NCBI GenBank assembly: GCA_951406725.2
Contig: OX597831.1
Location: 20,398,001-20,462,000, forward strand
DNA length: 64,000 bases
Source of the DNA: Octopus vulgaris
Taxonomy: Eukaryota
Direction: 5' to 3'
This document shows, one piece after another, positions 1,616 through 58,679 of the stretch. A program made the translations under genes and the position numbers. Below the pieces are notes generated by a model. That model was not told the DNA's origin and ran no database searches. It saw nothing but the letters and a program-made list of their open reading frames with translations. The stretch's first letter is position 1. Each line of letters begins with the position of its first letter.

Positions 1616-2140
1616 GGTGTTATATTTCTTTTCGTTGTATATCCCGCTGTCCTTTAGTTCGTTCGTTCTGTGTCTATATTCCCATTGTGACCGACCAGTC
1701 GACCAAGCTAGAAATATGAAATTAAAAAAGAAGACGACGCCATGTCAACTGTTGACTGAGAATTCTTGTTCCCCTCTTTCTTTTTTCTTTGCTTGCTTGT
1801 TTCTTTCTTTCTTTCTTTTCCTGCCTTCATAACAATATTTAGAAGTTGTCGAGGAACGTTAATATTGATTGTGATCAACAATAGTGATTGTTGTTGTTGT
1901 TGTTGTTGTTTTCTACATTGATGATGATGTAATCGTGGTGGTGGTGCTGACGATAATAATGATGATGATGATGATGATGAGGTCGAAGAAGAGGAAGATG
2001 AAGATCATGATGATGATGGTGGTGATTGTGGCGATAGTGGCGCGAATAATAACGATGATGATATTGTTTGCTGTATGTAAATGACGTTCCTGTTAATGTT
2101 GGCACCCTCAAGGTTTAAAAAAAGAAGAAAAAAAACGAGA

Positions 2141-22202: not shown

Positions 22203-23117
22203 ACACACACACTCAAATATATATGTATACACATGCACACTCAAATATATATGTATACACACACACACTCAAATATATATGTATACACACGCACACTCAA
22301 ATATACATGTATACACACACACACTCAAATATATATGTATACACACACACACACACACTCAAATATATATGTAAACACTCACACACTCAAATATATATGT
22401 ATACACAAACACACTCAAATATATATGTATACACACGCACACTCAAATATATATGTATACACATACACACTCAAATATATATGTATACACACACACTCAA
22501 ATATATATGTATACACACGCAGACTCAAATATATATGTATACACATACACACTCAAATATATATGTATACACACACACACTCAAATATATATGTATACAC
22601 ACACACACTCAAATATATATGTATACACACGCACACTCAAATATATATGTATACACACGCACACTCAAAAATACATGTATACACACACACACTCAAATAT
22701 ATATGTATACACACACACACTCAACTATATATGTATACACACGCACACTCAAATATATATGTATACACACGCACACTCAAATATATATGTATAGACACAC
22801 ACACTCAAATATATATGTATAGACACACACACTCAAATATATGTGTATACTCACACACACTCAAATATATATGTATACATGCGCACACTCAAATATATAT
22901 GTATACACACACACACTCAAATATATATGTATAGACACACACACACACACTCAAATATATATGTATACACACACACACTCAAATATATATGTATACACAC
23001 GCACACTCAAATATATATGAATACACACGCACACTCAAATATATATGTATACACACACACACTCAAATATATATGTATACACACACACACTCAAATATAT
23101 ATGTATACACACACACA
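22203..23117. repeat. 26-bp minisatellite ACACACACACTCAAATATATATGTAT, ~35 copies
   Basis: Visible periodic TCAAATATATATGTATAC motif. Confidence 0.95.
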
Positions 23118-34235: not shown

Positions 34236-36215
34236 GACTGAAGTAACAGAATACCTTTACCAAAAAATGAAGACACAAAAATGCCAAAGAACTACCGATT
34301 AGTAACATGTCTCAACACCACCTACAAGATCCTCATATCCATACTGACAGAATATACGTTTCCCTTGAACAGAAGTCTATCTTTTCATAAGCTCAAAAAG
34401 GCTGTAAAAGGAATTCTCATGAGTACAAAGCCAATTACTTATAAGTAAAATGATTGTAGAGAATTATCGGAGCAAAACGAAAAACCCGAGTATGGCATGG
34501 ATAAACATCAGGAAAGCGTTTTATATTGTCCCACATAATTGGCTGCTCAACGCCCTTGAGATATATAAGATCTCTCCTGTCGTTTCTTCAAATTCTTAAA
34601 AGGTAGCAAGTGGAACACTTAAAACGTGGCCAAGTGGAACACACGTCTCCTTCTAAATCATAATAATGGGATGAGCCAATCTAACAACGTCAACATGAAA
34701 CGAGGCATCTTTCAAGGTGACACCCTCTCCGCATTACTCTTTTGCATGGCACTGATCCTACTCTCAAACGAACAAGAAGATGGTATACAACATGCTAGTA
34801 TGAAGGAAAAATTAAGAAAGGAGTGTTATAGGAGAGTAAGACTCATGCTAAAAGCTGAACTCAACGCGAAAAATCGCATCGAAGCCATTAACATCCTGAC
34901 ACTTCCAGTAGCCCAATATAGTTTTGACATCATTAGTTGGAATCTTATAGAGCTCCAACGCCTGGACAGGAAGACAAAAAAAAAACTACTAACATCTAAG
35001 AACATACACCACCCAAAAGCAGACGTTGATCGTCTGTACCTACCTAGAAGTAACGGAGAAAGAGGAATGACGCAGGCAGAACTGTGCTATAAAACCTCCA
35101 CAATAGCAATGAATAGGTACTTATCTAGTACAGAGGGCTAGACGCTTGTGTGCAAACACGAAAGCAGCGAAAAATCACATTCTATTGTCAAGGAAACTTG
35201 CAAATTCGCAAGGGAACTTGGCATTAACCCTGAAATAGTTGAAGAACTTGAAACCACTGTCACAAAACAAGCAAAACGGATCAAGCAGACTTTAAAAAAG
35301 AACGGGCAGAAATAAATTGAGGAGCGGTGGAGCCAGAAGCCTCTGCATGGACAGTATATACTTCGAAGTCGAAATGCTGATGTAGATCAAGAAACAACCC
35401 ATCAGTAGTTTAGAAGTTCAGGACTGAAAGCAGAGAGTGACGGTTTTATATTGGTGGCACAAGATCAAAGATTGCTTACAAAAAAACTACCAGGCTAACG
35501 TTCTTCAAAACGGTTCTGACCCTAAATGCAGATTCTGCGACACATTTGACGAAGCAATAGACAATCTCGTCTCGAGATGTCCGGTGCTGACACCAAACGA
35601 ATAGGAAAATCGTCACTATAGGGTAGGACAGTATTTACAAAGGAAAATATGTAAACATTACAAAATCAGCACTCCTTCTTACTGGTATGAACATCATCCT
35701 GAGCCAGTCGTTGAAGGTTAAAATGCCACTATACTCAGGGATTTTCCAGGCAACACTGACAGAACGATCCAGGCTAATCGACCACAAATGATTATTAAAG
35801 ACAGGGAAGAAAATACTTGTAGACTAATAGATGTAAGTGTTCCAACTGATGAAAATATATCTGTAAAGGAATTTGACAAATTAAATATATATAAGGACTT
35901 GGAAACTGAAATACAAAAGTAGTGACATCTTAAAGCGAGAACTGTTCCTGTTATTGTAGGTGACATAGGTATGATAAAAAAAGAGATGTCAGAAACATCT
36001 AGATAAGATCCCGGGAGAACCATGTCTCGGAGAAAGCCAAAAGATTGTACTGAGCTGACAAGTACTGCCCATATCCTTAGAAAAGCCCTTTCCATTTAGA
36101 TGCATGTGTTGTATTAAATGAAGATATTTCGCTACGTTTCGTATCCTTCACTCACCCCACGACGCTAGGTGTGCCTCGGCAAGTGATTGTAACAAACATG
36201 CAGATTAAAAGTAAA

Positions 36216-55042: not shown

Positions 55043-56044
55043 TGTGTGTGGATGTGTGTGTCCATTTCTCCATTTCTCTATAATACTAACTATATACACA
55101 TATACGCATACACCTATACAGATACACAATCATAGAAACACATAAACAGTAGATATATGGAACGATGGAGTAAACCTCCACCTTCTCCTCTCTTCTTCCT
55201 TCTCTCCCACTACGCCACCAACTTCAAAAATCCACTTATCTTCTCCTTATCTCTTTACAATATTTACCCACAATACACTATGATAAGCAAACACAGATTC
55301 GTAGCGTTCTTTCACTTTGAAGAAATTACTTACCTTCTCAGAATTCTTTCTTCTATTTTTATGATTGCAAAAGGAAAAATAATTACCATTTTTCAGACGG
55401 GTTTCTTGAATTGTTAATTAAACAATTCATTTCGCATCTGCTACTTTCCCAGTCGTTGTTGTTGGAACAGATGATCCTGGCCCAGTCGATATCTCAGACA
55501 AAGCCTGCCTGGCCTCTGGATGTGTCGTTCGTTCTCTTACTCCTCTCTCGGCGTCTCCTATTGTCCCATGGATAAAGGCACTTCATTGTTTCCTATTCCC
55601 TCCTTCTTATATTTTTGTTAAACCTAATCGTTAACTTCTCGATAATGAATATGTAATAATAGAAACTTCTCTCTATCGCTGTCTCACTCTCCGTCTCTCT
55701 CTGTCTGTCTGTCTGTCTCTTTTCTCGCACTAGTATCTTGATGTGCTGAGGTCTTGGAATACCGTATCTAATGTTGCATAAGCTTCCGTAGAAATAACTA
55801 AATGGTGAACGATTGTGACCGCTCGTTGAGCATAACGTCCCACGGTTCGTTTCTGTTTCTCTGACGGAGCTGCAAACAAAAGACTAGGCCAAACAAAAGC
55901 CAAGGTTAGATGCCTGGTACCTGGAATGGTATCGAGCACTTGCAAATTTCTATCAATTGGTGGTATGTCAACCCTTGTATTACGTGGATGATTTGAGGGA
56001 AGCAAGAACAACGACATACTCGGAGAGACCGAAGGGTAAAGAAA

Positions 56045-56857
56045 AGAATGCCTGGACAATTTCATGGGGATGTTGAAGATAAGACAGACAGAGAAAAAAG
56101 ATGGCTGTGGATGACTAAAAATGATCTAAAACCGGAAACGGAGGCTCTAATCTGTTCTACTCAAGAGCAAGCACCAAGAACAAGCTACATAAAATACAGA
56201 ATAAACAACACATCAGAAACTGATAAGTGCAGAATTTGTGCACAAAATGGTAAGGCCCTATTGAATATTACCAGCAAATGGACGCCACTAGCCCAGAAGG
56301 AATATAAGAGAGGCCATGACAATATAGCAAGGCTGGTCAATTGGACACTTTGCAACTAGTATGGACTTGACAGAGCAAAAAAATTGTTACGACCACAAAC
56401 CCGAAGATATCATGTGAGATTTTATGATTCAGTGCGACCATGAGGTAGAGAATAGGAAGCCAGACATAGTCTTAATTGAGAAAGAAAGCAAACTATGCTG
56501 GATCATAGATATAGCATGCCCAGCTGACAACAAAGTATGCCATAAGGAAGAAAGAAAAGTCAATTGATATGACAGGTTAACTTGGGAGGTTGAGTAGTTG
56601 TGGTAGCACCAATAAAAAAAGTGTAGTAGCACCAATAATTGTCGGAGCCCTGGGAACAGTGTGTAAAAATCTTGAGAAGTACATGGAACAAATAGGGGCT
56701 GCAATAAGGTTAGAGCACTTGCAGAAAACAACACTGCTTGGAACCGCTCGAATTCTCCGGAAGGTGTTCGAAAAATAAGAGGTGTTACCTTAGTTCACTG
56801 GTAGTGAACAGCTGACACCGTAGTGCATCTCCAGCGTTAGAAGCTGTGCAAAGCGAT
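56045..56857 (+). mobile_element. R4/Dong LINE 3' fragment
   Basis: GQF...LKPETEALICSTQEQA...CRIC...KPDIVL...IDIACP...PIIVGALG...LQKTTLLGTARILRKV; (AAT)n tail. Confidence 0.9.
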
Positions 56858-56875
56858 AATAATAATAATAATAAT

Positions 56876-57285
56876 TGTTTTGTCTTGGATGGGTTACAGC
56901 AAATATTCTGCTCAATACCACAGATTTGCTTGTCGGTTGCTTAACTTTAACTAGTTGTTCATGTTTCTTAGTGGCTGACGATATGTACATCTCTAATCAC
57001 GAGCAGAAGTAGTGTGGGAGCATCATAGCCATGTATTGAGAGAAATTCTTTGAGGTTTGGATAATTCACCTTTGGAAACAAAGTTGTTTTGTTCAACATC
57101 CTAAAACAACCCTTATTAGAAAAATTCATACTGGGACTCACCTGCAAGGCCATGCGCTTTTTATTTTGATATGAGATCACTGTGTCGCGTACATATGGTT
57201 GTGATGCATGTGCCTGGTGTACTCTTATCAAATGGGTAGTCATGATGGATATACTGGGCTTCGTATATTTTGCCCCAGTGTCACG
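56876..57285 (+). mobile_element. Family E element (diverged)
   Basis: Match to the 32385 copy; directly after the Dong (AAT)n tail. Confidence 0.85.
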
Positions 57286-57362
57286 TTGGCGCCATGCAAA
57301 CACAATAATAATAATAGTTGTGTCTATATCTAAGTATGTGTGTTGGGATATATATATATATA

Positions 57363-57951
57363 TGTAGCTGCCGGTCAAGTAGTGTGGAGCGACTGACCTC
57401 CCTTGTTCGAAGGTTATATGGATACAGTTTGTGTATCAAATAAGCTAACTTAAGGCGATGGCCTCATGGAGCTAATAAGCGGACAGCTTTATTCTTATTT
57501 TTATAAGAATGCCATATTAGTATGGCGATAACTATTATTTTCCGGGAACGCTGCCGTTGTTCTCTTTTAGAGAGACTTAGTAATTTTAATATTTCTATTA
57601 TTGAAAACAAGTGGATGTATTCCACCGAATCTAGGTAAATAAAACCTTCGAACAGAGATTGTCAGAAGCGACACCTACTGGTCTGGCAACGCTGCATTGA
57701 AAAGGGGCAATACCCCGAAACGCGTCTGTAGCTGCCGGTCAAGTAGTGTGGAGCGACTGACCTCCCTTGTTCGAAGGTTATATGGATACAGTTTGTGTAT
57801 CAAATAGCTAACTTAAGGCGATGGCCTCATGGAGCTAATAAGCGGACAGCTTTATTCTTATTTTTATAAGAATGCCATATTAGTATGGCGATAACTATTA
57901 TTTTCCGGGAACGCTGCCGTTGTTCTCTTTTAGAGAGACTTAGTAATTTTA

Positions 57952-57957
<6 letters not shown>
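57363..57957 (+). mobile_element. Retrozyme-like / Penelope-type tandem element (364-nt monomer x1.6) in (TA)n
   Basis: 57727-57957 repeats 57363-57594 with a 1-nt indel; HHR at the junction. Confidence 0.85.
57691..57732 (+). ncRNA. Type I minimal hammerhead ribozyme, U3-A8 core
   Basis: Stem I GCTGCA/TGTAGC; core TTGAAAA; stem II GGGG-caata-CCCC; GAAA; palindromic ACGCGT; GUC cleavage after 57726. Confidence 0.85.
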
Positions 57958-57993
<36 letters not shown>

Positions 57994-58043
57994 TATATGT
58001 ATATGTCTCTCTCTTCCCCCCTCTCTCTCTCTCTCTCTCTCTC

Positions 58044-58082
<39 letters not shown>

Positions 58083-58679
58083 CGTATTCATATATATAAT
58101 ACGTATTCATATATAATACGTATATATCATATGTATATGTATGTAGATAGATAGATAGATAGATATGTTAGCTGAGAAAAGAACGAAAGCAAGCGCACTC
58201 AATGCCAGTGGTAGAGTTCAGTCAGTCAACCGAAACTAGTTAAAACTACCACGAGACTAACTGAATGAATCTATTTCCAGTCATCCGTCTTGATACTAAA
58301 GGTTGACTGAACATACAGACTTTCGGTAGGCCATGTTGAGTATGGCAGCAGTTTTAGCTAATCTGTTATTTTGGTTGATCAAATTGAATTTCATGCATCT
58401 ATGTATATATATGTGTAGGTATATGCTTGTCTCTGGCTATATATAGTACATACACATATATATAAATATATGTATATATATATATGTATATATATTTATA
58501 TATATATATAAATGCATATATATGTGTGTGCATACATATGTATGTATTTATGTATATATATGCATATAAGTTTATACACACATATATATGTACATATCCG
58601 TATACATATATATTTTGTGTATACGCTTATATATGTAGTTATATATACATATATATATATGCACTTGAATGTCTATATA

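Follow-up and report, generated by a model that had tools for sequence, protein, structure and literature searches.

The sequence at positions 57363-57957 of the window (the whole 64-kb stretch of Octopus vulgaris DNA analysed here) comprises 1.64 copies of a structured unit that lacks an ORF and carries a type I hammerhead, and belongs to a family which, known here from sequence alone, adds a new member to an established class, the non-LTR retrozymes. A Neptune-like Penelope element resident in the same genome likely supplies the enzyme that copies this family into (TA)n, with a circular 363-nt RNA as the probable template. The components of this reading differ in strength: copying by a Penelope-like element (PLE) is almost certain, the Neptune-like family that we sampled is, judging from its sequence features, very probably the source of the enzyme, and the template RNA is probably circular.

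A tandem unit bounded by predicted hammerhead cut sites

The first-pass annotation of this DNA had described a tandem repeat with a period of 364 nt, and the unit start is indeed present at 57363 and 57727 only; over unit positions 1-232 the second copy carries a single 1-nt deletion, the one difference between copies that had been noticed. As described, (TA)n tracts precede 57363 and succeed 57957, and the hammerhead at 57691-57732 is complete, its GUC ending at 57726, the unit boundary (Table 1). The claim that the unit has no ORF was upheld as well, since stop-to-stop frames in a natural 4-mer reach at most 65 aa. The usual unit of the family is 363 nt; relative to the column majority, unit 1 of the window has one extra A and two substitutions. 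GC is low in the 1-kb bin of the element (0.38). We infer that the 3′ end of the partial second unit, at 57957, marks the start of reverse transcription. A search of the unit for tRNA genes found none, ruling out a tRNA-derived SINE, and an ORF rolling through the 363-nt unit was likewise ruled out, none being present.

Table 1. Features of the window element, its hammerhead and the loci compared with it
Feature	Position	Strand	Remark
Left (TA)n remnant of target	57347..57362	.	sequence
Full retrozyme unit, between consecutive predicted hammerhead cut sites	57363..57726	+	364 nt; usual length 363
5′ arm of predicted long rod	57363..57414	+	pairs with ~57642-57696; hammerhead closes rod (circle or junction)
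Site A, unit ~176 (...AACTATTAT)	57528..57538	+	read through in window copy
Site B, unit ~239 (...TTCTATTAT)	57590..57601	+	positions 177-239 equivalent to Penelope 'tail'
Type I hammerhead	57691..57732	+	predicted cut after C57726
Stem I GCUGCA/UGUAGC	57691-57696/57727-57732	+	P>=0.94 in circular fold
Core UUGAAAA (U3-A8 variant)	57697-57703	+	sequence
Stem II GGGG/CCCC	57704-57707/57713-57716	+	P>=0.94 in circular fold
GAAA	57717-57720	+	sequence
Stem III, palindromic ACGCGU	57720-57725	+	self-complementary hexamer
Partial second unit, positions 1-232	57727..57957	+	3′ end 7 nt before fixed end B (~239)
Right (TA)n target	57958..57987	.	sequence; primer side by inference
A6-to-G hammerheads	L008:1828-1870, 2191-2233; L011:1465-1507, 1828-1870		core change
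Young two-frame Penelope family	L134:244-5460 (G000:C6, about 133.343-133.348 Mb) and L131-L146		apparently intact

Structure of the unit RNA

In hammerhead position numbering, the window core UUGAAAA is the U3-A8 covariant of CUGANGA, a feature absent from the first-pass description. Rfam returned nothing in the 64-kb window at the gathering threshold, and the hammerhead family was absent among the 13 hits at E<=10 over 57200-58100. The strict hammerhead pattern is intact in 137 of 156 motifs, and U3-A8 is invariant across 22 full units. The intermolecular duplex of stem III is predicted at -8.9 kcal/mol; since this stem is a self-complementary hexamer, cleavage would need a dimer, as established for such motifs (PMC7229834).

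The monomer had also been described as self-complementary, and folded as a circle it reached -119.7 kcal/mol (z = -6.1), below 200/200 shuffles. An 87-pair structure is paired in 98.4% of cells over 22 hand-picked full units, whereas slid controls are only 31-44% paired. Eight of the 87 pairs change on both sides in the 22 sequences, including pairs of stems I and II and of the palindrome (ACGCGU vs ACAUGU), which supports maintenance of the RNA structure through compensatory changes; the count of covarying pairs is not above that of shuffles (107/500 reach it), the changes representing few events.

A young, dispersed family in the octopus genome

The proposal of a young, multi-copy, non-coding tandem element in (TA)n was borne out. 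In the microsatellite-rich genome searched (2.8 Gb, 227 contigs), an exact 29-nt hammerhead pattern had 893 matches, rather than a single one, and a relaxed pattern including older subfamilies had 1,936, with 0 matches for either reversed-pattern control. After removal of 17 duplicate loci we parsed 83 distinct loci, comprising 26 top search hits plus 17 and 40 loci from pattern matches, the 40 coming from the first 100 pattern matches listed. L123 (another subfamily), L031 (N gap) and L099 (extending beyond the fetched stretch) were left out of the end counts, leaving 80 loci.

Copies are dispersed over many contigs in arrays of up to about six units, and arms cross up to 5 junctions, or about five and a half units. 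Young units diverge by 1.4% from the column majority, while at least four older subfamilies (L157-L236), about 80-88% identical, have U, C or G at core N7 and ACAUGU or ACGCGU as palindrome. Most loci are flanked by (TA)n, masking any target-site duplication (>4 bp in retrozymes when present). L026 and L099, on different contigs, have a common 5′ flank and a near-identical 5′ junction, and so may be non-independent insertions. At least half of the element's words occur in each of 20 runs (11 studies, six organism labels), and the family may therefore be common to related species.

Two fixed 3′ ends and paired inverted arms

The 3′ ends of the arms are fixed. Among 137 arms in the 80 loci, 131 end at A (~176) or B (~239), with 66 at A (42 exactly at 176), 65 at B (44 exactly at 239) and 6 elsewhere. 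TA-like sequence follows 113 of the 131 A/B ends, both sites end in CTATTAT, and the older subfamilies (L157-L236) have the same two ends. Inverted two-armed insertions account for 55 of the 80 loci (49 AB, 2 BB, 0 AA and 4 with one unclassed end), giving AB pairing in 49 of 51 classifiable inverted loci (P = 6e-13); one of the two BB loci relies on a 22-nt match. The older-subfamily set, 30 of whose 64 loci were found using a B-ending query, has 35 inverted loci (25 AB, 2 BB, 0 AA and 8 unclassed). At the inversion junctions, the arms overlap by 2-12 nt in 40 of 54 cases, and one-armed retrozymes comprise 14 A and 11 B. The features expected of copying in the Penelope manner are all present, namely a tail delimited by two fixed internal 3′ ends, truncation at the 5′ side, inverted arms and a microsatellite as target.

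A 5′ end at the cut site, which the first-pass annotation had reported, was confirmed for the window copy but rejected as a rule for the family: 17 of 131 arms begin near the cut site (-10..+8) and 2 of 131 exactly there, most arms starting elsewhere with the junction read through. In a bias-reduced set (54 loci, 89 arms), 10 ends fall at the cut site against 3.3 expected (about 3-fold, P about 0.002), and a stronger hotspot lies at unit positions 37-52 (15 vs 3.6 expected). The cut site is thus a real, second-rank 5′ stop, and this excess together with the motif suggests that the unit RNA may cleave itself.

Tandem 363-nt units and 5′-truncated pieces might also arise as truncated pseudo-LTRs left by an autonomous element that has escaped notice, or from a minisatellite amplified as DNA. 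However, position 364 leads to position 1 in the 83 loci and in none of them to an ORF; no unit directly adjoins RT-coding sequence; and dispersed arrays of up to about six units have fixed 3′ ends. These results largely refute such an origin, which we regard as extremely improbable. They also answer the first-pass suggestion to look for linkage to an RT ORF: with no contiguous RT frame in 83 loci, the element is not an ordinary Penelope pseudo-LTR. No LTR pair was found in the 83 loci either.

One haplotype per insertion

Two units of the same arm differ by 0.79% and units from different arms of a locus by 0.85%, against 2.19% for units of different loci, and rare variants are shared in 118/315, 42/191 and 144/45,477 cases, respectively, showing that all units of a locus represent one haplotype. 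The family comprises several haplotype lineages and therefore has many sources. The one-haplotype data fit a monomer circle or a homogeneous linear multimer, and rolling-circle copying of the circle fits as well. Pattern-anchored junctions are exact in 151/151, a count in which altered junctions would escape the pattern. One assembled contig from a presumed RNA run crosses the junction and is equally compatible with a circle, a multimer or DNA.

Some observations favour a linear multimer in some cases. Where at least three units per locus cover a variant, 226 variants were scored, of which 87 occur in every unit, 122 in a single unit and 17 in a subset; the subset variants are not predicted by one monomer circle, and CpG decay is ruled out as their sole cause, 12 of the 17 being non-CpG. 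An identical A6-to-G core change was found in two loci on different contigs, in 2/3 and 2/2 of their hammerheads (Table 1). A change at A6 is expected to impair hammerhead cleavage, so a probably impaired ribozyme got copied.

It is nonetheless unlikely, in our estimate, that the Penelope enzyme copies a linear, uncleaved read-through multimer derived from existing arrays, with the hammerhead a passenger or rare cutter and no circle formed. Besides the subset variants and the copied core change, such a template would suit the 158 of 175 junction arrivals that pass through the hammerhead junction, and the anole element, in which hammerhead mutants were without effect on insertion in vitro, provides a precedent for dispensable cleavage (PMC11167929). 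Counting against our own reading, 8/9 predicted Xenopus retrozyme dimers were uncleaved in vitro (bioRxiv 2026.07.22.740005). On the other hand, subfamilies about 80-88% identical still contain arms of more than one unit, and because internal priming and 5′ truncation would shorten arrays at each cycle, something must regenerate multimers. Variants present in all units (87) also outnumber those in subsets (17), the core, stems and palindrome are maintained across subfamilies, and 5′ ends are enriched at the cut site. Copying from a circle is the reading that we prefer.

A Neptune-like Penelope element as candidate partner

A GIY-YIG search gave at least 148 matches, from 150 scored among 6,136 candidates, and several Penelope (GIY-YIG) families are present in the genome. 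One young family (16 copies, median identity 99.3%) has a 781-aa frame comprising RT, CX4CX2C and GIY-YIG (YLDD at 425, CX4CX2C at residue 647, GIY-YIG at 685-772), overlapped by an upstream frame (ORF1, up to 479 aa). A CX2-5CxxC linker between RT and the GIY-YIG at the C terminus is a Neptune/Nematis feature (PMC8557442), and the linker points to this affiliation for the putative partner. The terminus of the Penelope element carries a U3-A8 hammerhead (UUGAUAA..GAAACAUGU; 1,501 matches), with a core (UUGAUAA) and palindrome (ACAUGU) identical to those of older retrozyme subfamilies; stem I of the young Penelope hammerhead looks weak. The element has two TA-primed ends, 68 and 106 nt past its cut site, and a 38-nt tail, and all eight of its inverted loci are A+B (among 60 loci fetched; one read from BLAST ends).

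BLAST of the monomer against Penelope termini (50 GIY-YIG loci) found nothing beyond the hammerhead motif and CTATTAT near end B, and the partner is therefore assigned by pattern, age and motif. This lack of extended homology to the sampled termini, the difference in tail length (63 nt in the retrozyme vs 38 nt) and the several GIY-YIG families of the genome could instead reflect an enzyme from a different Penelope family, of which we sampled others through 30 GIY-YIG loci, or from a LINE. We think this highly improbable: the sampled family is young (99.3%, against a 1.4% divergence of retrozyme units from the column majority), it has the same core variant, target and A+B rule, and two fixed internal ends are described as specific to PLEs (PMC11167929). 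One-armed Penelope copies (L237-L276) are mostly A (30/34), as against the 14 A and 11 B of the retrozyme, which counts against our reading.

No clean retrozyme-Penelope chimera was found in the 83 loci. The young Penelope element lies near one of the 83, with 155 bp of another repeat between (L014/L147); this candidate chimera was rejected since the spacer represents the 3′ terminus of a third repeat family, at best 94% like its other copies. L258 and L263 were rejected too, being neighbours via a shared TA tract. The third TA-inserting repeat (L147:2441-2595; L152-L156) ends in ...ATTTATTAAT followed by (TA)n, has short inverted arms and yielded 1,336 first-look candidates; it is probably another Penelope-type element or passenger.

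Comparison with known elements

The family combines tandem units of 363/364 nt (within the 150-450 bp of the class), a type I hammerhead per unit and a highly self-paired predicted circle with non-coding sequence, low GC and no LTR arrangement, features by which non-LTR retrozymes are recognised. It resembles the animal non-LTR retrozymes of Cervera and de la Pena (2020, PMC7229834), with units of 350-390 bp in mussel and 330/350 bp in axolotl, in its similar-size tandem non-coding units with one type I hammerhead each, its low GC, its lack of LTR features, its self-paired predicted circle and its weak palindromic stem III. Unlike them, it shows the U3-A8 core, and its short arrays are scattered, with inverted A+B arms inserted in (TA)n. 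Two fixed 3′ ends are absent from the results and discussion of that paper, which name no cephalopods, and circles and cleavage were shown there, whereas the octopus family was read from genomic DNA. We found no cephalopod retrozyme in the literature (Repbase, Dfam and key supplements, outside this search, may list the family), and the main text of an octopus repeat annotation (PMC13282606) has 0 matches for 'ribozyme' or 'hammerhead'.

Vertebrate retrozymes (Li, Clavereau and Pollet, bioRxiv 10.64898/2026.07.22.740005) likewise co-occur with PLEs; non-autonomous use of a Penelope-like enzyme was proposed for them, and 24/57 Xenopus families matched Repbase elements, nearly all PLEs. The vertebrate link consists of co-occurrence and pLTR homology, whereas the octopus link lies in the insertion pattern, without extended homology.

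Among PLEs, anole Poseidon has two internal RT starts that delimit the tail, both strands being cut and extended by a predicted dimer (PMC11167929), and Penelope elements (Neptune, Naiad) show inverted copies, a tail often at one end and TA targets (PMC8557442). The octopus family is like these elements in having a hammerhead upstream of two internal RT starts that flank a tail; it has 5′ truncation and partial tandems as they do, as well as inverted arms, a one-end tail and (TA)n targets. It is unlike PLEs with endonuclease in that its unit lacks an ORF and its tail is 63 nt rather than 30-40 nt. At A and B the sequence is TA-like and matches the target; the anole start, by contrast, is described as non-homologous. 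The two strands showed no difference in start sites in the anole element, a point against the priming proposed below (PMC11167929). Near-strict one-A-one-B pairing is quantified in the octopus family, unlike in the PLE descriptions, and beyond the text of PMC11167929 and PMC8557442 we found no account of one-site-per-strand pairing in the literature.

The minimal hammerheads of the Schistosoma PLE Cercyon (PMC4209133) show the same U3-A8 core covariation, but they are mostly single and heterogeneous, whereas each octopus unit carries a single one and the tandem arrays are homogeneous; a 6-bp stem I and a 4-bp stem II also set the octopus motif apart from Cercyon. MRC1 and other non-autonomous Chlamys elements are, like the octopus units, non-autonomous Penelope passengers with head-to-tail insertions; unlike them, the Chlamys elements generally have 3′ sequence in common with an autonomous family, and most are described as lacking a hammerhead (PMC8557442).

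Possible dimer priming on a single circle

We give even weight, for and against, to a more specific mechanism in which the copies record a PLE dimer that used two different fixed sites of one viroid-like circle to prime the two strands of a break, each protomer rolling round the circle. In the preferred reading, dimeric hammerheads, pairing via the palindromic stem III, would cut multimer transcripts, and the cut monomers would be ligated to circles, as has been shown in retrozymes of coral, mussel and axolotl (PMC7229834). The Penelope RT/GIY-YIG protein, acting as a dimer, would cut each strand of a TA tract, and its two protomers would prime on one and the same RNA, the first at A and the second at B; the cDNA of each would extend round the template for a mean of about 360 nt, and overlaps of 2-12 nt (microhomology) would join the pair. 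On this reading the window copy is one-armed and of B type, with a cDNA that ended at the cut site.

For animal retrozymes, the return to the genome and the enzyme responsible have been hypothesised, not shown (PMC7229834; bioRxiv 2026.07.22.740005), and the origin of the inverted arms and tails of Penelope has been called open (PMC8557442). The octopus family is young and numerous enough for A+B pairing, the haplotype per insertion and read-through of the ribozyme junction to be counted, and since an apparently intact candidate enzyme is present in the same genome, both questions could be tested in vitro with the 363-nt RNA. If true, dimer priming on one circle would account together for Penelope tails, for inverted arms and for retrozyme multimers, and would identify a live enzyme-template pair within one genome. 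As the class is already known, the value of the family lies mainly in its being a testable record of mechanism.

Other repeats in the window

A very high-copy repeat, probably a SINE, lies just upstream of the element at 57150-57290 and is deep in 4/4 runs. At 34623-35141 and 55997-56359 there are broken frames that we take to resemble pieces of LINE reverse transcriptase and endonuclease, and a 28-bp minisatellite of about 32 copies occupies 22203-23117.
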